Below the pieces are notes generated by a model. That model worked only from the letters and a program-made list of their open reading frames with translations, had not been told where the DNA came from and ran no database searches. Positions 2,528-29,912 of a DNA stretch of 63,493 bases are shown one piece after another (the first letter of the stretch is position 1; every line of letters begins with the position of its first letter). Position numbers and translations under genes: made by a program. The DNA is from an uncultured Actinomycetota bacterium (GTDB taxonomy: Bacteria; Actinomycetota; Humimicrobiia; Humimicrobiales; Humimicrobiaceae), in NCBI GenBank assembly GCA_964561115.1, contig CAZLOE010000005.1, positions 1 through 63,493 on the forward strand, in the 5' to 3' direction.

Positions 2528-4192
2528 CTAAGACTTCACATTTTTAAAATATACTTTATCCTGTTTCAGTATTATATGTTTTTTCCAGTTTTTATCATCT
2601 TTCTCCGGAAAGTCGTTTCTCTGATGTGTTCCCCTGCTTTCTTCTCTAAGGCTTGCAGCCTTTATTATAAGGCCGGCCACGACAAGCATATTGGCAAACT
2701 CCAGCACGTCCTTATCCGTTGTGTTATAAATATCATCACTACTCGCGTGCAGATCGACAAATTCTTTTGCTTTCTTTAAGCTATCTGCGTCTCTCAAAAT
2801 ACCTACTTTTCTGGTCATAATATCTCTAAAATCAGAGATCTGGTTTAAGATATCTTGCTTTTTACAGCTTGACTTGCTTACTTTACTTTTTTTTGTATCA
2901 GCCTCTCTTAAGAGGTTGTTTATCAACTGGATGGTCTTGATTTCTACACTTTTATTTTTTTGTATCAGTTTTTTTTCTATGTCCCTGTAGATTTTCCATC
3001 CATACACCAGACCCTCAATAAGAGAGTTGCTTGCCAGCCTGTTTGCTCCGTGTGCACCGGTTGAAGCCGCCTCACCACAGCAGTACAGGCCCTCTATGTT
3101 TGTCTTTCCATTATAGTCTGTTTTGATACCACCATTTAGATAATGCTGGGCCGGGGAGACCTTGATCAAATCTTTTTTAAGATCGAGGCCGTTTTCCTTT
3201 AGTTTTGAGATTATATTAGGAAAACGTATTTTAAGGTGACTTTCGGGAATGTGCCTGGCATCCAGATAAACATAATCACAATTACTTTTATCCATCACCC
3301 TTATCATTTCCTTGACCACTATATCTCTAGGGGCCAGTTCTGCCTTGGGATATTTTCCGACCATAAACCTATTTCCACGGCAGTCCTTAAGATAAGCGCC
3401 TTCACCTCTTAAGGCTTCACTTATCAGAAATAATTTTGATTCTTTTGTCTTAAATACCGTAGGATGAAACTGGATAAATTCTATGTCACTGACAGCAGCT
3501 CCCGCTCTGTATGCCATGGCAATACCGTCTCCAGTTGATATGGGAGGATTAGTGGAAATATAATATATCTGTCCGATACCGCCGCTGGCGATTACAATAT
3601 TCGCAGCAGGGCGTATTTCAAGGTCTCCGGTATTTATATCCATCCCTAAGATCCCTATACATCTATTGTCGCTCACCAGTATATCCAGTACAAAATACTC
3701 CGGAAGGAAATTTATATATTTCTGGCTTTTGGAGTAAGAGACCAGTTTTTTTTCCAGTTCCTCTCCGGTAGCGTCCCCTCCGGCATGAAGGATTCTCGGA
3801 TAACTGTGCCCACCTTCTGTAGTAAGACTTATCTCACCTTCGGAGATATCAAAATTAGTGCCTATTTCTATCAAGTCTTCTATCATCTTCGGGGCATTCT
3901 TTACTAATATTTCCACTGCTTTCTTATCACAGAGACCCTGCCCTGCCGCAATGGTGTCTTCATAATGGTTTTTCCAGAAATCAGGCTTCTTTATAGCTGC
4001 AGCAATACCGCCCTGAGCATACCAGGTCGTTGAATCGGCAAGAGAACTTTTAGTAAGCACTTTAATATTGTTATTTTGAGCCAGCCTCATGGCAGTAGAA
4101 AGACCTGCTATTCCGCTGCCGATAATTATACAATCGCAGTATTTATGGATTTTTTTAAAAAATGGTAGACTTATTAAATATCTTGGTAACAT
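2528..4192 (-). CDS. nadB: L-aspartate oxidase
   Basis: GSGIAG FAD motif, AQGGIAA, EGGHS, QFHPT, SEALRGEG, HGANRLASNSL, ESRG. Confidence 0.96.
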   Translation of the reverse strand: MLPRYLISLPFFKKIHKYCDCIIIGSGIAGLSTAMRLAQNNNIKVLTKSSLADSTTWYAQGGIAAAIKKPDFWKNHYEDTIAAGQGLCDKKAVEILVKNAPKMIEDLIEIGTNFDISEGEISLTTEGGHSYPRILHAGGDATGEELEKKLVSYSKSQKYINFLPEYFVLDILVSDNRCIGILGMDINTGDLEIRPAANIVIASGGIGQIYYISTNPPISTGDGIAMAYRAGAAVSDIEFIQFHPTVFKTKESKLFLISEALRGEGAYLKDCRGNRFMVGKYPKAELAPRDIVVKEMIRVMDKSNCDYVYLDARHIPESHLKIRFPNIISKLKENGLDLKKDLIKVSPAQHYLNGGIKTDYNGKTNIEGLYCCGEAASTGAHGANRLASNSLIEGLVYGWKIYRDIEKKLIQKNKSVEIKTIQLINNLLREADTKKSKVSKSSCKKQDILNQISDFRDIMTRKVGILRDADSLKKAKEFVDLHASSDDIYNTTDKDVLEFANMLVVAGLIIKAASLREESRGTHQRNDFPEKDDKNWKKHIILKQDKVYFKNVKS

Positions 4193-16906: not shown

Positions 16907-16982
16907 GCCGATGTAGCTCAACTGGTAGAGCAGCTCATTCGTAATGAGCAGGTTACCGGTTCAAGTCCGGTCGTCGGCTCCA
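16907..16982 (+). tRNA. tRNA-Thr (anticodon CGT), CCA encoded
   Basis: GCCGATG/CGTCGGC acceptor, GCTC/GAGC D-stem, GCTCA-TTCGTAA-TGAGC anticodon arm, ACCGG-TTCAAGT-CCGGT T-arm; 76 nt. Confidence 0.97.
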
Positions 16983-22918: not shown

Positions 22919-22939
22919 AAAGAATTTAAGGTGAATATC

Positions 22940-24157
22940 ATGAAATATATAATAATAGTCATAGACGGTATGGCAGATTACAGGATAAGCAAACTGGGCA
23001 GAAAAACCCCACTGCAGTTTGCTAAAACACCGACTTTAGATAGTATTGCCAGGGACAGCGAAATGGGAACAGCCAGAACTGTTCCCGAAGGAATGGCGCC
23101 CGGAAGCGATGTTGCAAATCTTTCGGTTTTAGGATATGACCCCCAAAAATACCATACAGGCCGCGCTCCGCTTGAGGCTGCGAGCATGGGAATCAATCTG
23201 CTGGATGAAGATGTAGCATTCAGATGCAATCTGGTCACATTATCCAAAGAATATAATTATACCGATAGGATTATGATAGACTACAGTGCAGGAGAAATCC
23301 CTACTGACAAGGCCAGAATACTTATCAGAGATATCAAAAACAAACTTCAAACTGAATATATCAGGTTTTACCCGGGAGTAAGCTATAGGCACATAATTGT
23401 ATGGAAGAATGGACCTGACAGAAATATTCTGACCCCGCCTCATGATATAACAGGTAAGAAAATTGCCGAATTTCTGCCCAAAGGCCCGGGTGAGAATGTA
23501 ATTTTAGGGATGATAGTAAAGAGTATGGCTCTGCTGGAAGACCATATTGTAAATATAAAAAGAGTAAAAGAGGGCAAAAGACCTGCAAATGCCATATGGA
23601 TATGGGGTGAAGGAAAAAGGCCCGATCTGGACAGCTTCTACGGAAAATATAAGTTAAGGGGTTCAATAATATCGGCTGTCGATCTGATAAAGGGGATCGG
23701 TGTTTTGGCCGGACTTGAACCGGTCACAGTCGAGGGTGCCACCGGGACTATTGACACTAATTTCAGCGGAAAAGCCGATGCTGCAATAAATCAGCTTATA
23801 GCAGGAAAGGATTTTGTATTTATCCACCTGGAAGCTGCCGATGAATGCAGCCATCAGGGAGATGTGGAAAACAAGGTAAAGGCAATAGAAATAATAGACA
23901 GGGAAGTCATAAAAGCAATAAAGAAAGATATGGAGAAAGAAGAGCTTGACTATAAGATGATGATACTCCCCGATCATTATACTCCTATAAGGAAGAAGAC
24001 CCACAGTTCAGAGCCTGTGCCGTTTCTTATCTATGACAGTACAAAGTCAGCCGGCGGCAAGTCTAAAAGATTCGATGAGTTCAAGGCGAAAAAGACAGGC
24101 CTGCATTTTGAGGAAGGATATAAGCTGATAGACTATTTCTTTGGGAAAGAGGGATAG
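22940..24157 (+). CDS. Cofactor-independent phosphoglycerate mutase family (ApgM), proposed homoserine-kinase subfamily
   Basis: DGMAD, PGSDVANLS, GRAPLEA, HLEAADECSHQG, PDHYTP; directly after hom-thrC. Confidence 0.85.
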   Translation: MKYIIIVIDGMADYRISKLGRKTPLQFAKTPTLDSIARDSEMGTARTVPEGMAPGSDVANLSVLGYDPQKYHTGRAPLEAASMGINLLDEDVAFRCNLVTLSKEYNYTDRIMIDYSAGEIPTDKARILIRDIKNKLQTEYIRFYPGVSYRHIIVWKNGPDRNILTPPHDITGKKIAEFLPKGPGENVILGMIVKSMALLEDHIVNIKRVKEGKRPANAIWIWGEGKRPDLDSFYGKYKLRGSIISAVDLIKGIGVLAGLEPVTVEGATGTIDTNFSGKADAAINQLIAGKDFVFIHLEAADECSHQGDVENKVKAIEIIDREVIKAIKKDMEKEELDYKMMILPDHYTPIRKKTHSSEPVPFLIYDSTKSAGGKSKRFDEFKAKKTGLHFEEGYKLIDYFFGKEG

Positions 24158-24186
24158 GCAATATAGTGTATTAATATTAAAGTTTA

Positions 24187-24212
24187 TGGTTCGAGTCACT
24201 TTGGGGCTACCA
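24187..24212 (+). repeat. Site 1: orphan tRNA 3'-end-like fragment (attL/attB-like)
   Basis: TGGTTCGAGTCACTTTGGGGCTACCA: T-loop TTCGAGT, 5 nt, 7-nt acceptor strand, A, CCA, at exact tRNA spacing; no 5' half upstream. Confidence 0.75.
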
Positions 24213-24365
24213 GCTCAATACATTACCTAATATATATCTTAACTACCATATAAACATCAACTATAGGTCAAATCATTTCTCTCTTAAGAAATTACCTTAA
24301 AAAAAAGAAAAATAGAACGAATATATATAATAATATATAATATATTTAACTAAATAGGAGTATCT

Positions 24366-25709
24366 ATGAAAAAGTTAATATATATAATTACAGTTTTAGT
24401 TCTTATCCTAAGCTTTACTCCTGCTTGTGGCAAAACTGTATCAACTGATGAAGCTTTAGTTGAATCAGAACAGGCATACCCTGTAATTCAATTAATTGAA
24501 GCATGCAGACTAGGGAATCTTGAAGATGTAAAAAGACTAATAGAACAAAGTGCAGATATTAATAAAAAAGATTGGGGTGGCTTTACACCTTTAATGATTG
24601 CATCAGCTTTTGGCTATACTGAGATTGTAGAGATGCTTATAGATAATGGCGCAGATGTTAATGCACAAAATCATTATAGCAGTACAGCTTTGAAGTACGC
24701 AGTAGGCGGCGGCTACATCGAGATTGTAGAGATGCTGATAGCTAATGGTGGGGATGTCAATGTAAAAGCAAATGTAAACTTGATAGATTTGAGGGGGGCT
24801 GCAAACGGTAGCTACGACATCTCAGATTATAGTGCAGAAATTGATACAAAAGGAAAAGCTTTATTACGTGCAGTATCTGAAGGCAACACTGAAACTTTAG
24901 AGATGCTGATAGATAATGGTGCGGATGTTAATGTAAAAGATAATGGAAGATGGACAGCTTTGATGTACGCAGCAGCTTATGGCTACACTGAGATTGCAGA
25001 GATGCTGATAGATAATGGTGCGGATGTTAATAAAAAAACAAATTTAATTGGTACTACAGCTTTGATGATCGCATCAGGCGGTGGCTATACCGAGATTGTA
25101 GAGATGCTTATAGATAATGGTGCGGATGTCAATGCAGAACAATATGGAAAATGGACAGCTTTGATGATTGCATCAGGCGGTGGCTATACCGAGATTGTAG
25201 AGATGCTGATAGATAATGGTGCGGATGTCAATGCAATAAGCCGTGACTGCGGTACAGCTTTGAAGTATGCATCAGCTGGTGGCTACACTGAGATTGCAGA
25301 GATGCTTATAGATAATGGTGCGGATGTTAATGCAAAAGAAGTCTGGGCAGCTTTGACAATTGCATCAGGCCTTGGCTATACCGAGATTGCAGAGATGCTT
25401 ATAGATAATGGTGCGGATGTTAATAAAAAAACAAATTTTATTGACGGTATATCTTTGAATTATTCTGTATTTGATGGCTACATTGAAACTGAAGGGATTC
25501 AGATAGTATATGGTTATACAAATGAAGACTGGACAGCTTTGATGTACGCGGCAGCTGGTGGCTACACTGAGATTGTAGAGATGCTGATAGATAATGGTAC
25601 AGTTGTTAATTTGAAAGCAGATAATGGCAGTACAGCTTCGATGATTGCGATAGAGAAAGGCTACACCGAGATTGTAAATATACTTAAGGAAGCAGGTGCC
25701 CAAGAATAG
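24366..25709 (+). CDS. Ankyrin-repeat lipoprotein (about 11 repeats)
   Basis: Signal peptide ending TPAC; nine EMLI(D/A)NG..VN units plus two cap repeats; near-identical DNA repeats. Confidence 0.9.
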   Translation: MKKLIYIITVLVLILSFTPACGKTVSTDEALVESEQAYPVIQLIEACRLGNLEDVKRLIEQSADINKKDWGGFTPLMIASAFGYTEIVEMLIDNGADVNAQNHYSSTALKYAVGGGYIEIVEMLIANGGDVNVKANVNLIDLRGAANGSYDISDYSAEIDTKGKALLRAVSEGNTETLEMLIDNGADVNVKDNGRWTALMYAAAYGYTEIAEMLIDNGADVNKKTNLIGTTALMIASGGGYTEIVEMLIDNGADVNAEQYGKWTALMIASGGGYTEIVEMLIDNGADVNAISRDCGTALKYASAGGYTEIAEMLIDNGADVNAKEVWAALTIASGLGYTEIAEMLIDNGADVNKKTNFIDGISLNYSVFDGYIETEGIQIVYGYTNEDWTALMYAAAGGYTEIVEMLIDNGTVVNLKADNGSTASMIAIEKGYTEIVNILKEAGAQE

Positions 25710-25722
25710 CGGGACACCAAAG

Positions 25723-25797
25723 TTAATAATTTAATTTTTTAAATTCTCTCAGTTCCTTTAAAATCTGGTTCGAAATTGTAATACTTGGGGCTACCAT
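25723..25797 (-). other. Cryptic peptide across site 2 (putative displaced recombinase C-terminus)
   Basis: Hand translation MVAPSITISNQILKELREFKKLNY*. Confidence 0.55.
25766..25796 (+). repeat. Site 2: 31-bp att-like direct repeat
   Basis: TGGTTCGAAATT-GTAAT-ACTTGGGGCTACCA. Confidence 0.85.
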
Positions 25798-25865
25798 ATA
25801 AGAAGTTTTGAAGTATAAAAAGAACATATATCTTTAACCTTGATTATTCTGGCTCCTGATTCTTT

Positions 25866-26558
25866 CTAAGGCCTCTTTCTAGTTAGAAAATCAAAAAGTA
25901 GTCTGGAATTATCTTTTGAATTCCTTAAAATTATTTTCTGCCATTTCTTGGGTAATGAATCAAATATATCAGTAATCTTTTTTTGTTGCGTTTTACTTTG
26001 TAATAAGAATTCTCCGATTTCTTTTGCAGATGACAAATCTCTTTTTTGCTTTTCTTTGTTTAGTCTTCTTTCTTGAATTATAAATTTATGAAACACATAA
26101 GCTGCCGGTTCGGGAAGAACAACTATCATATCTTCATATTTTACTTTTATCGTATGCTGTTGAAGAAGATTAAGGAACCTCAGCCCTTGAGCATTGATGT
26201 GTAATTTGGGTATTTGATATGGCTTATTTCCTTTACCTCTTCCAAGATCTGCAATTAAAAACTCTAATTCAAGTTCTGGATGAACATATTTTGTATGCCC
26301 AGTTAAATAGTTATTAGAAGGAATAAAATCTAAACTATTTAGGATTTCAGGTACATTCACATCTTTTCTTATTTTCGGTGGATTTGGAATAAGAAAGTCA
26401 ATATCCAATGTTCTTAATAGTGGTATTTCTGGAGCATTTGAAAAATAAAATCTGTAAAAATAATGGCACCAACTTCCAATAAGAATAATATCTTCCAGAA
26501 CACCTTCACCATAAAGCAAATTGAGAGTTTTGAAAAATAAGTTACCTTTTCTTTTCAT
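25866..26558 (-). CDS. Nucleotidyltransferase-fold protein (GSU2403/NTP_transf_8-like), putative toxin
   Basis: IILIGSW, RTLDIDFLIP (G-S and DxD NTase motifs), LEFL, PEPAAYVFHK, KQKRD. Confidence 0.75.
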   Translation of the reverse strand: MKRKGNLFFKTLNLLYGEGVLEDIILIGSWCHYFYRFYFSNAPEIPLLRTLDIDFLIPNPPKIRKDVNVPEILNSLDFIPSNNYLTGHTKYVHPELELEFLIADLGRGKGNKPYQIPKLHINAQGLRFLNLLQQHTIKVKYEDMIVVLPEPAAYVFHKFIIQERRLNKEKQKRDLSSAKEIGEFLLQSKTQQKKITDIFDSLPKKWQKIILRNSKDNSRLLFDFLTRKRP

Positions 26559-26856
26559 GAGACATCTTTTCCAACTTTATAATATTGTTTTTAGCCTGAA
26601 TGTATAGTTTTCTAAGCCTTCTTCTTTCCTCTATTTTAAGCTTAATCTGAGAAATTTCTTCTTTATCTAATTTACCTAAATATTTAAAAATACTTTTTTT
26701 CCTCTCTCTATAATTAAGATAATAGTATATATGCCCCTTTATCTCCTTTTTTATCAGACTTCCTTTTGGAAATTTAATTAATTTACTCTCATAACTTTTT
26801 TTAAGGTTCTCTAACCTGCTTAATTCTTCTTTTAATATTCCATTTAGAATTTCCAT
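26542..26856 (-). CDS. Small basic protein, putative DNA-binding antitoxin/regulator (DUF6788-like)
   Basis: Coiled-coil, then KGSLIKKEIKGHIYYYLNYRE..YLGK, then coiled-coil; AGGAG SD; overlaps the NTase start by 17 nt. Confidence 0.7.
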   Translation of the reverse strand: MEILNGILKEELSRLENLKKSYESKLIKFPKGSLIKKEIKGHIYYYLNYRERKKSIFKYLGKLDKEEISQIKLKIEERRRLRKLYIQAKNNIIKLEKMSHEKKR

Positions 26857-26869
26857 ATTTTACTCCTGA

Positions 26870-26967
26870 GTTACCAGATAAACTAGTAAACCTAAATTAT
26901 TGTCTGGTAACATCCTATTGATTAGGTTACCAGACAAATACTTAATTATTATGATATGTCTGGTAAC
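26870..26967. promoter_or_regulatory. Tandem pair of inverted-repeat operators
   Basis: GTTACCAGATA-N20-TGTCTGGTAAC (26870-26911) and GTTACCAGACA-N20-TGTCTGGTAAC (26926-26967). Confidence 0.8.
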
Positions 26968-26976
26968 TTTTGTCAA
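26948..26976 (-). promoter_or_regulatory. Sigma70-type promoter of the NTase operon
   Basis: TTGACA-N17-CATAAT on the minus strand, overlapped by the second operator. Confidence 0.7.
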
Positions 26977-27092
26977 GGACTGGGCTAATTTTATTTGATC
27001 AATATACCACAAAAGGATTTAGTCTATCTGGTATCGGAAATCATAGATCGACATTATTTGTAATATAAGACTCGCCTGAGCAAATGGGTCAT

Positions 27093-27170
27093 TTAGTTAA
27101 AAAATATATCTTCTATTTCATTCAACTTCTTCAAAATTTGGTTCGAAATTTCAATACTTGGGGCTCCTAT
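27093..27170 (-). other. Cryptic peptide across site 3
   Basis: Hand translation IGAPSIEISNQILKKLNEIEDIFFN*. Confidence 0.55.
27139..27169 (+). repeat. Site 3: 31-bp att-like direct repeat
   Basis: TGGTTCGAAATT-TCAAT-ACTTGGGGCTCCTA. Confidence 0.85.
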
Positions 27171-27260
27171 AAGTAGCTAAATTATATAAAATAGATTAAA
27201 TATATATAGTACTTTCCAAAAAACTTCTCTATAACCGGAATAATTATCTTTATTAAAATA

Positions 27261-27299
27261 GATAAATGTGATATATATATCTATATATCTACATTTATC
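27261..27299. promoter_or_regulatory. Imperfect palindrome, probable ArsR operator
   Basis: GATAAATGT-(AT-rich, near-symmetric 21 nt)-ACATTTATC upstream of the thioredoxin-permease-arsR operon. Confidence 0.6.
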
Positions 27300-27345
27300 A
27301 ATATATATATATTTAAAGTAAATAAAAGATAGGGAGATGGTAAAA

Positions 27346-27585
27346 ATGGAAATTAAAGTAGTAGGCCCTGGCTGTACAAACTGTAAAAATCTATTAGAGG
27401 TAGTCAAGCGAGCTGTTAAAGAACTAGATCTTGTAATAGAGGTTGAGCATGTAACTGATGTTCAAAAAATGGTTGAGATGGATATTATGCAGACTCCTGC
27501 ACTTGCAATCAACGACAAGGTTGTACTTTCAGGTTTTGTGCCTGATATAAAAACTGTAAAAAATAAAATAAAAGAAAACGAGTAG
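27346..27585 (+). CDS. Small thioredoxin-like redox protein (MTH895/Thioredoxin_3 type)
   Basis: VVGPGCTNC CxxC, IMQTPALAIN..V..G; ATG at 27346 has better SD spacing than 27337. Confidence 0.85.
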   Translation: MEIKVVGPGCTNCKNLLEVVKRAVKELDLVIEVEHVTDVQKMVEMDIMQTPALAINDKVVLSGFVPDIKTVKNKIKENE

Positions 27586-27592
27586 ACAAGTT

Positions 27593-28558
27593 ATGAGCAT
27601 ATTTTATCCTGTTGAGCTGCTTGCTGACTGGCTTACTTTCGATGTTTTTCACCTTGCGGGTAAAAAGCTACTGGCATCAGCGGTAAACTTTTTTATATAC
27701 GACACCATAAAGATATTTATCCTGCTTGCAGTAATTATTTTTATAGTATCTATAATCAGGACATTTCTATCACCTGAAAGGATAAGAGGGATACTTTCCC
27801 GCAGAAATAAGTATGTTGGTAATTTTCTTGCTGCGGTTCTGGGAATAATTACTCCATTTTGCTCATGCAGTGCTATTCCCCTATTTTTGGGATTTATGGA
27901 AGCAGGTATACCTTTGGGAACGACATTTTCCTTTCTTGTTTCTTCTCCCATGATAAATGAGGTCGCCCTTGTTTTGCTTTTGGGTTCTTTCGGTTGGAAG
28001 GTAGCTTTAATCTATATAGGCAGCGGACTTGTTATTGCAATACTTTCAGGTATTTTAATTGGTAGACTTAAGGTCGAGAACCTGGTCGAAGATTTTGTTT
28101 TTAAAAACAAATTAAATCCATCTAGAAACGGCTTAAAGATGCATTGGAAAGATAGGCTAAATTATGCAAAAAGCTACACGGGTCAGATTATCAAAAAAGT
28201 ATGGTATTTTATTTTAATAGGTATAGGTATCGGTGCTTTCATACATGGTTATATACCGGTAGATTTTTTAGCCCAGTATGCCGGTGCTGATAAATGGTAT
28301 GGTGTTATTGTCGCAACAATAATTGGAATCCCTCTTTATTCAAATGCAGCAGGGGTAATCCCTCTGGTAAGTGCACTTGCAGAAAAAGGTGTTGCTATTG
28401 GTACAACTCTGTCTTTTATGATGGCAGTTACTGCACTATCACTGCCTGAATTTTTAATCTTAAAAAGAGTGATGAAAACAAAACTAATTTTGATATTTGC
28501 CGGGATAGTCGGTGCTGGTATTATAATTACAGGTTATATATTTAATTTAATTTTATAA
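27593..28558 (+). CDS. ArsP/DUF318-family permease
   Basis: TPFCSCSAIP, FLVSSPMINEV, GIPLYSNAAG, ALSLPE; multiple TM segments. Confidence 0.88.
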   Translation: MSIFYPVELLADWLTFDVFHLAGKKLLASAVNFFIYDTIKIFILLAVIIFIVSIIRTFLSPERIRGILSRRNKYVGNFLAAVLGIITPFCSCSAIPLFLGFMEAGIPLGTTFSFLVSSPMINEVALVLLLGSFGWKVALIYIGSGLVIAILSGILIGRLKVENLVEDFVFKNKLNPSRNGLKMHWKDRLNYAKSYTGQIIKKVWYFILIGIGIGAFIHGYIPVDFLAQYAGADKWYGVIVATIIGIPLYSNAAGVIPLVSALAEKGVAIGTTLSFMMAVTALSLPEFLILKRVMKTKLILIFAGIVGAGIIITGYIFNLIL

Positions 28559-28587
28559 GATGCTTGATTTAAAGTAATGGGGCACAA

Positions 28588-28944
28588 ATGGAAAGAATTA
28601 TTAAAATTTTAAAAGCTGTTTCTGATGAGAATAGGCTAAGGATAATTTGCCTTATTTTTCATAAAAGTGGGTTATGTGTATGTGAAATAACTGAAGTCAT
28701 AGGTCTTTCCCAGTCCACCGTATCAACACATTTAAAAAAGTTACAGGAAGCAGGACTGATAACTTATTCCAAAGATGGACTCTGGATTAATTATTACTTC
28801 AATAAAAATTTGGAAAAAAATTTATTGAATCCTATAAGTTTACTAATGATTCAGTTAAAAGACGATAAAAAGATAAAAGAAGATTTTAAAAAAGCTGAAA
28901 AAGTTTCAAGACTTGAGATCTGTAAAAGCATTAAAGCTAGTTAA
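28588..28944 (+). CDS. ArsR/SmtB-family regulator
   Basis: KAVSDENRLRII, LCVCEI metal site, SQSTVSTHLKKL HTH. Confidence 0.92.
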   Translation: MERIIKILKAVSDENRLRIICLIFHKSGLCVCEITEVIGLSQSTVSTHLKKLQEAGLITYSKDGLWINYYFNKNLEKNLLNPISLLMIQLKDDKKIKEDFKKAEKVSRLEICKSIKAS

Positions 28945-29021
28945 TGATTTAAGAGCACCCATTTAAAGAAATTAAAATCAAATCAATAATAAAAATTAAT
29001 AAATACTGAGGCCTAATAAAA

Positions 29022-29037
29022 TCAACTGTACAGTTGA
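29022..29037. other. Perfect 16-bp palindrome
   Basis: TCAACTGTACAGTTGA in an AT-rich intergenic stretch. Confidence 0.6.
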
Positions 29038-29078
29038 ATCAATATAATCCTGATTATTTAAAGAGAATAGTAATTAGA

Positions 29079-29153
29079 TTAATATAATAATTTTTTTATT
29101 TTATTTATTTCCTCCATAATTTGGTTCGAAATTCTGTAACTTGGGTCTACCAG
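29079..29153 (-). other. Cryptic peptide across site 4
   Basis: Hand translation LVDPSYRISNQIMEEINKIKKLLY*; open upstream to an ATG at 29180. Confidence 0.55.
29122..29152 (+). repeat. Site 4: 31-bp att-like direct repeat
   Basis: TGGTTCGAAATT-CTGTA-ACTTGGGTCTACCA. Confidence 0.85.
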
Positions 29154-29166
29154 TTTTAGTATTTCT

Positions 29167-29442
29167 TTATTTAAACTCATAGGTTGACTCATTTCTTTTT
29201 AGGACTCTAAGAATAATTACTCTATTGTCTTTGTCAAAAACATCATAGATTATTCTATAAGAGAAAAATCTTATTCTGTAAGTATTTTGAAATCTCTTTA
29301 TTTTCCTTACTCCAGGTGGTCTTGGTTCTATTGATAAATTATCAATTATACTTACAAGTTCATTGAAGTTTGGTAATTTACTCTTAAGTTTCTTAAAATC
29401 TCTTTCAGCAGCTGGTGATATTTCTACTAAATAGTTTTCCAT
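29167..29442 (-). CDS. RelE/ParE-family toxin
   Basis: YLVEISPAAERDFKKL, PRPPGVRKI, YRIRFFSYRIIYDV. Confidence 0.88.
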   Translation of the reverse strand: MENYLVEISPAAERDFKKLKSKLPNFNELVSIIDNLSIEPRPPGVRKIKRFQNTYRIRFFSYRIIYDVFDKDNRVIILRVLKRNESTYEFK

Positions 29443-29448
29443 AATAGG

Positions 29449-29679
29449 TTATTTAAGACTTTTCTTTACTTCATTCCAGGATTTTGTACCACTTTTTTTT
29501 ATTTCCTCCTGGCTCTCTTTTATTAATGGAGTAAGTTCTATGTCTTCGTGGCTTTCTATCCATTCCACTATTGCCTCAGAAACAATATCACTGGCATTAA
29601 TATTCCTCTTTGCTGCTTCTACTTTTAGATGCGTATATATATTCTCATCTCTAAATACAACTGTCATTCTTTTACTCAT
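29449..29679 (-). CDS. Ribbon-helix-helix antitoxin
   Basis: ATG at 29679 after GGAGG; MSKRMTVVF beta-strand plus two helices; directly upstream of the toxin. Confidence 0.75.
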   Translation of the reverse strand: MSKRMTVVFRDENIYTHLKVEAAKRNINASDIVSEAIVEWIESHEDIELTPLIKESQEEIKKSGTKSWNEVKKSLK

Positions 29680-29692
29680 TTTTTGCCTCCAT

Positions 29693-29708
29693 AAACGTAT
29701 ACACGTTT
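29693..29708. promoter_or_regulatory. Probable TA operator
   Basis: AAACGT-atac-ACGTTT inverted repeat just upstream of the antitoxin SD. Confidence 0.55.
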
Positions 29709-29912
29709 GCACGCTTAAACATATAATACCAGATTTTAAACTTTTCACCAAATATGAGGATTATAAATGGTTTACGGAGGTGAAGTATTAAATTTATGAA
29801 TTATTCTGTAATTACCTTGGTTTAAAATTATCTCCTTTACTTGTTGAGAAGCCCCGCAATATAGACTATAATTACCCCTATTTACAATAAAGGAGATTTC
29901 TATAGTATAAAT

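Follow-up and report, generated by a model that had tools for sequence, protein, structure and literature searches.

Polymerase-beta type nucleotidyltransferases (NTases) act as toxins in the AbiE and MenAT toxin-antitoxin (TA) systems. In brief, these systems are bicistronic, the small DNA-binding gene comes first, and the operon is autorepressed via inverted repeats in its promoter. The MenT toxins add nucleotides to tRNA 3' ends (PMC7450476, PMC10435456), and in MenT3 the active-site serine is a phospho-acceptor (PMC11375011). Toxin and antitoxin may also be fused in a single immunity protein, for which CapRel is the precedent (PMC9712102). A further family of NTase-fold proteins is catalogued as PF12281. 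Its canonical members are single proteins of approximately 350 aa, the best-scoring ones in our Desulfobacterota set, where PF12281 is present in 30 of 301 genomes. Members are found in Caulobacter vibrioides and Geobacter sulfurreducens (GSU2403), annotated fused genes in Ruegeria and Rhizobium lusitanum, and a Sinorhizobium member is known to us as an unannotated tblastn match only.

The window analysed here, a stretch of 63,493 nucleotides, carries an NTase gene and a small partner gene between two copies of a 31-nt repeat. The features of the module are:

25766 to 25796, plus strand: 31-nt repeat, site 2, TGGTTCGAAATTGTAATACTTGGGGCTACCA; bounds the module downstream and has an identical copy beside a second pair in the same genome
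25866 to 26558, minus strand: NTase gene, 230 aa, PF12281, polymerase-beta fold (from open reading frame, Pfam, alignment, model and Foldseek)
26542 to 26558, minus strand: 17-nt overlap of partner stop and NTase start (from the coordinates); recurs in most related loci
26542 to 26856, minus strand: partner gene, 104 aa, modelled as helix, three-stranded sheet, helix (from open reading frame, model, hhalign and gene order)
26863 to 26867, minus strand: Shine-Dalgarno sequence AGGAG, 6 nt before the partner ATG (from the sequence)
26870 to 26911, minus strand: predicted operator O2, GTTACCAGACA-N20-TATCTGGTAAC, between promoter and Shine-Dalgarno sequence
26926 to 26967, minus strand: predicted operator O1, GTTACCAGACA-N20-TGTCTGGTAAC, with the -10 box in its spacer
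26948 to 26976, minus strand: sigma-70-type promoter TTGACA-17-CATAAT, 11 of 12 consensus positions
27139 to 27169, plus strand: 31-nt repeat, site 3; bounds the module upstream of the promoter

Both open reading frames are present and overlap as the preliminary description had it. We take them to be real genes and not chance, because at least 417 NTase homologues were found and 1047 cluster representatives match the partner profile. The overlap suggests that translation of the NTase is coupled to that of its partner; one of the related loci with the same 17-nt overlap has its NTase start at 4001 and its partner end at 4017. Sites 2 and 3 are direct repeat copies flanking the operon and its control region. 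The two genes had been said to fill the interval between them exactly, which is roughly correct, but 69 nt of 3' flank and 282 nt of promoter and operator region also lie between the repeats.

The NTase matches PF12281 (NTP_transf_8) with an E-value of 1.5e-17 and 64.8 bits (cut-off 26.3), over profile positions 9-206 of 218, and its relatives carry the NCBI name "GSU2403 family nucleotidyltransferase fold protein". It was first described as uncharacterised. The protein in fact belongs to this catalogued family, and it is for the family that no functional study came to light: a literature search for PF12281, GSU2403 and DUF6788 found none, GSU2403 being listed in one paper among hypothetical proteins, with raised expression in IHF mutants. 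The motifs read from the protein at the outset are all present and conserved in an alignment of 43 sequences, namely G28-S29-W30, D52-x-D54, H157-K158 and K170-x3-D174. In this alignment G28, S29, W30, D52, E150, P151, K158, K170 and D174 are invariant, and D54, E99 and H157 nearly so, with E99 as the third conserved acidic residue.

An AlphaFold model of the NTase (pLDDT 93, pTM 0.90) consists of a mixed sheet and then a five-helix C-terminal part. The catalytic set falls on the model strands 25-27, 52-57 and 97-103, which carry hG[GS], DxD and the third acidic residue, respectively. A Foldseek search against the PDB supported the NTase fold without a close relative; the best match was 5uvd (E 3e-4, TM 0.50), followed by a class-II tRNA nucleotidyltransferase, TM1012 and ANT(2'')-Ia. 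The better-scoring full-length matches are small NTases, i.e. 5uvd, TM1012 and the aminoglycoside enzyme ANT(2'')-Ia (TM 0.48/0.60). With an intact catalytic set, and with Pfam, model and Foldseek in agreement, the description as an NTase-fold enzyme holds.

The likeness to AbiEii and MenT that had been proposed for the NTase does not extend to a demonstrable kinship beyond the generic NTase core. The protein does not match PF08843 (DUF1814) at E<=1, an hhalign comparison with 18 AbiEii (PF08843) proteins gave 1.9%, and a profile search of PDB sequences returned 0 matches. None of the 50 PDB matches that Foldseek listed is a MenT or AbiEii structure. On these grounds we rejected membership of the AbiEii/MenT group. 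The NTase motifs overlay those of AbiEii only in a forced, non-significant hhalign alignment. In its predicted fold the protein resembles NTases that act on small molecules no less closely than the known NTase toxins. A weak Foldseek match of the NTase was to the AbiEi antitoxin 6y8q (prob 0.80, TM 0.38/0.43). A HEPN-MNT (type VII) system was rejected as well; there is no HEPN match, the sole partner is the 104-aa protein, and the NTase stop lies only 69 nt from site 2. It had been asked whether the pair belongs to a system that already has a name. PADLOC-DB v2 holds 0 families that match either protein at E<=1, and NCBIfam and PHROGs gave no matches.

The partner protein, which lacks cysteine, was modelled with a pLDDT of 93 as a helix (2-26), three strands across residues 33-61 and a second helix (65-101). 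In Pfam it has no HTH, RHH or AbiEi match, as expected from the first reading of its sequence, and its model has no significant match in the PDB or BFVD and shows no ligand-binding domain. The weak look-alikes, none of them significant, are Pfam Arm-DNA-bind_3 (E 0.06-0.3), the structures 3jtz and 3rmp, prefoldin beta, a 384-aa viral protein and a homing endonuclease.

Relatives of the partner carry the precomputed label DUF6788 (PF20586), and the two do share a layout of helix, beta-hairpin and helix together with a GSL motif. Weak DUF6788 matches were obtained for 4 of 35 partner homologues (best E 4e-4), all below the cut-off of 27.2 bits. The partner protein of the window has no match, and those within its own genome are below the cut-off. 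In contrast to the partner, true DUF6788 proteins have a Cys-rich insert (CG..C.C...HGP) in the hairpin and are usually encoded upstream of genes for approximately 440-495 aa; they never adjoined PF12281 in the same 301 genomes. We therefore rejected the partner as a true DUF6788 member on account of its sub-cut-off scores, its lack of Cys and its different sequence and genomic context. The true DUF6788 loci (L136-L155) occur in several copies per genome, near contig ends, and look like part of an insertion sequence.

The origin of the partner is apparent from the single-chain members of PF12281. The N-terminal approximately 105 aa of these fused proteins are homologous to the partner (hhalign 96%, E 4.6e-9), and both contain the motif G-S-x-x-x-K-x-x-K-G-x-x-Y-x-Y...Y-L-G. 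By this homology the window pair is a split member of a fused family. What had been called a non-canonical antitoxin is thus better described as the detached, putatively DNA-binding N-terminal domain of what is usually one polypeptide. It is very probable that partner and NTase touch physically, because most members of the family have the two joined in a single polypeptide. The homology weakens the classical model of a labile antitoxin and points to a regulatory domain that would act in cis or in trans; the fused forms themselves do not fit the scheme of stable toxin and labile antitoxin.

A tree of the NTases (89 rows) places the split forms in one clade of 69 rows (support 95) and a second, small one. 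The fused forms dominate the deep branches, where they are divided among at least three deep clades. The tree is rooted at its midpoint only, which does not settle the direction of fission versus fusion. Secondary re-fusions are found inside the split clade (P0057, L038).

The catalytic residues are kept in most fused forms. In a fused subclade from Desulfobacterota (L102, L103, L106) the DxD motif is gone, and what is retained is the N-terminal domain, the HK...K..D tail and an inverted repeat upstream of the gene; these proteins may be catalytically dead regulators. On a plasmid of Ruegeria sp. AD91A (L156, NZ_CP031947.1, 1-3498) a fused GSU2403-family gene of 338 aa lies 88 nt downstream of, and on the same strand as, a very large gene annotated as AAA family ATPase. 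This arrangement is absent from the other loci that we examined.

The predicted operators O1 and O2 are both 42 bp long and have the same geometry, O2 ending 2 nt before AGGAG. An O2-type architecture is found in relatives too. We scanned the 170 nt upstream of the partner gene for inverted repeats with arms of >=9 nt and a spacer of 12-26 nt, and used windows from the same loci as controls. Such a repeat was present in 74 of 75 loci versus 40 of 375 control windows, and 57 of the 75 upstream regions contain two. The spacers are approximately 20 nt long and the repeats lie around the promoter, usually with a TTGACA box just before the proximal one. The half-sites keep the shape TTRCC-NN-ACA and vary by lineage (TTACCAGACA, TTGCCTAACA, TTGCCCAACA, TTAACCTACA, TTACCATACA, TTACTATACA, TTACCTTACA). 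The fused proteins have one such inverted repeat before the start codon. This is strong comparative evidence for the partner domain as a sequence-specific autorepressor, with the binding itself inferred, and the module is very probably self-repressed. No operators were seen other than those of the module itself, so that a regulon is not evident.

Scanning one genome per species gave 80 related loci, down to 34% NTase identity. The partner gene is immediately upstream and on the same strand in 78 of these, usually with the 17-nt overlap. The loci come from more than 12 phyla and include Atribacterota-type MAGs (several labelled Actinomycetota), a Woesearchaeota MAG, Spirochaetota, Elusimicrobiota, Omnitrophota, Desulfobacterota, Fibrobacterota, Planctomycetota, Nitrospirota, Acidobacteriota, Verrucomicrobiota, Chloroflexota and Bipolaricaulota. 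Among 1.84 billion clustered proteins, the partner profile matched the 1047 representatives mentioned above (clusters at 50% identity), and the best 150 of these are all stand-alone proteins of approximately 100 aa.

Taxonomy is scrambled on the NTase tree. Near-alike NTases are found in MAGs assigned to different phyla, i.e. in Omnitrophota and Planctomycetia (L054/L055), in Bipolaricaulota and Pirellulales (L066/L078), and in Woesearchaeota (L012) and the Atribacterota-type clade. The cause is either horizontal transfer in recent times or errors in binning. The genome of the window, of 1.29 Mb, has a second and strongly diverged pair (L001, contig 23, 1185-2076), encoding 100 aa and 203 aa with a 23-nt overlap and adjoining a transposase fragment at the contig start. 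The NTase of this second pair lacks the last C-terminal helices.

The 131 open reading frames that flank the related loci fall into 105 Pfam families, and no third gene recurs among them. The neighbours are mostly housekeeping genes, with a few TA genes (HigB, Xre-type HTH and SocA_Panacea), and give no clear signal of a defence island in a flank survey that had no control set.

In the window, sites of the form TGGTTCGAAATT-N5-ACTTGGGGCTACCA separate unrelated gene units over positions 24180-29152. Other units in this array are an ankyrin lipoprotein, a thioredoxin/permease/ArsR unit and a ParE/RHH pair. The last of these, at 29167-29751 and two places along the array, consists of a ParE-family toxin (91 aa, PF05016) and a ribbon-helix-helix-like partner (100 aa). 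With the NTase pair there are therefore two TA-type units in one array. Further copies of the 31-nt site were found at the second pair of the genome (L001, 2258-2288, identical) and, in similar form, at two Atribacterota-type loci (L005, 2587-2617 and 3408-3438; L007, 1020-1050), where the site lies about 200-280 nt upstream of the partner gene. This suggests that the NTase pair travels as a cassette with its 31-nt site. No tRNA or Rfam element is located at the 31-nt sites; the sole tRNA of the window is a tRNA-Thr at 16907. Directly after the threonine synthase gene, the window encodes a cofactor-independent phosphoglycerate-mutase-like protein (22931-24157; PF10143, PF01676), and a first, degenerate site of the 31-nt type follows just after that gene.

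Both genes are intact in 58 of the 80 loci. A broken NTase accompanies an intact partner in 16 loci and the reverse is seen in 1, which given the gene lengths corresponds to a one-sided binomial p of approximately 0.015 by our own estimate. An intact NTase without a partner was not found among the 80 loci. Assembly errors in MAGs may contribute to gene breakage. The asymmetry, with the partner outlasting the NTase, has the direction expected of a TA pair and is circumstantial evidence for one. Equally circumstantial are the other TA-like signs, namely the scrambled tree, the unrelated neighbours, the two copies in a genome of approximately 1.3 Mb and the position bounded by cassette-like repeats and next to a ParE module. 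The earlier proposal of a TA or Abi type gains from this an autonomous, mobile-looking and autoregulated module with asymmetric decay, and loses the kinship to AbiEii and MenT.

Based on these observations, we give about even chances to the reading that the pair is an autonomous, horizontally mobile and self-repressed two-gene module of the TA type. In the mechanism that we envisage, the single sigma-70-type promoter would transcribe both genes. The partner, probably as a dimer, would bind the two 42-bp operators over the -10 box and the leader and so repress the operon, and the NTase would be translated in coupling with the partner through the 17-nt overlap. By analogy to the known systems, free NTase might transfer nucleotides onto a cellular target, most likely an RNA 3' end such as that of tRNA, and thereby arrest growth. 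The partner might keep the NTase inactive through direct binding, and the enzyme might be freed when the module is lost or when the cell suffers an insult, for example infection by a phage.

Cassette arrays often carry resistance genes. We consider it possible, if unlikely, that the NTase is non-toxic and served by a dedicated repressor, and that it modifies an antibiotic or metabolite, as ANT and Lnu do, or another harmless substrate, so that the pair is useful cargo. The presence of ANT(2'')-Ia and TM1012 among the better full-length Foldseek matches is in line with this, as are the lack of a detected relation to MenT or AbiEii, the lack of a PADLOC match and the common occurrence of single-gene fused forms. 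However, the coupling of the enzyme to its partner or domain is strict, with translational overlap, and two strong operators with a predicted tight autorepression would be unusual for a resistance enzyme. An NTase that decays far more often than its partner, the spread among uncultivated anaerobes beside unrelated neighbours, and a partner without a visible ligand-binding domain also argue against this reading.

A sensor-effector against phages, comparable to CapRel, strikes us as rather improbable. Here a phage product, or DNA damage induced by the phage, would displace the DNA-binding partner and unleash the NTase, which would lead to abortive infection, and the split form would be a switch made of two chains. 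The occurrence of fused and split architectures in one family, the precedent of fused TA immunity proteins (PMC9712102) and the few TA genes among the neighbours fit such a role. The failure of PADLOC and PHROGs to match the pair does not, nor do the mostly housekeeping neighbours, although the missing defence-island signal comes from a survey with no control set. Very improbable is a two-part transcription factor, whose NTase-like domain would be a sensor or co-repressor that, for instance, binds NTP or modifies itself or its partner and that has no external target: the fused subclade without DxD, with its architecture and upstream inverted repeat retained, and the weak match to the AbiEi antitoxin 6y8q agree with it, but the catalytic residues show little or no variation within the clade of the window and are kept in most fused forms, no operators beyond the module's own were seen, and frequent breakage of the NTase while the partner persists would be odd for an obligatory co-repressor.

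If we return to the TA reading and extend it to the family, the split and fused GSU2403-type proteins would together form a very large TA or immunity family of bacteria and some archaea. In it, a new sheet-based DNA-binding domain would repress the operon and restrain an NTase toxin in cis or in trans, and this NTase would be unrelated to AbiEii and MenT and have a new target. We advance this wider proposal tentatively and hold it to be somewhat doubtful. The family is in any case widespread: 1047 cluster representatives match the partner profile, and the module is spread over more than a dozen phyla, with an archaeal MAG and genome-reduced uncultivated lineages among its carriers. If the NTase is a toxin, the family would be a second lineage of NTase toxins alongside DUF1814, and would offer a new fold of DNA-binding antitoxin. 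Its forms, some fused and some split, would be a natural series for the study of how an enzyme is restrained. The co-varying operators would be ready-made pairs for the study of protein-DNA specificity, given the predicted binding. If the NTase is non-toxic, the PF12281 family is still in need of a function.

Among the known systems, the PF12281/GSU2403 family shares with the window pair the NTase match and the homology of the N-terminal domain, and both forms have an inverted-repeat operator upstream. In contrast to the members of approximately 350 aa, the protein of the window is split over two overlapping genes and the N-terminal domain is a separate upstream gene. The partner resembles the arm-type or AP2-like DNA-binding domains (integrase N-terminal domains, PDB 3jtz and 3rmp) in having a three-stranded antiparallel sheet and then a helix. 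It differs from these in its two long helices, which give it a prefoldin-beta-like outline, and in half-sites that are approximately 31 bp apart from centre to centre.

Many PF12281 members resemble CapRel in that a single chain carries both the regulatory part and the enzyme; in other members each part has a chain of its own. However, the enzyme folds are unrelated, and in the PF12281 family the regulatory part is N-terminal and predicted to bind DNA. With AbiE and MenAT the module has in common the bicistronic order with the small gene first, DNA binding being predicted for the partner; the predicted autorepression via promoter inverted repeats; and a polymerase-beta NTase that contains G[ST] and DxD and ends in helices with a conserved K and D. 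In contrast to their antitoxins (COG5340 AbiEi or MenA), the partner has no winged helix-turn-helix and no significant PDB match, and, unlike in AbiE and MenAT, fused forms are common in the PF12281 family. Compared with MenT3, the family's active-site residue Ser29 is Gly in the Smithella clade, and a MenT-like switch by auto-phosphorylation of this Ser is therefore not general in the family. The window pair is not a member of the AbiE/MenAT systems, and it is plausibly a TA or immunity module of the PF12281 family.
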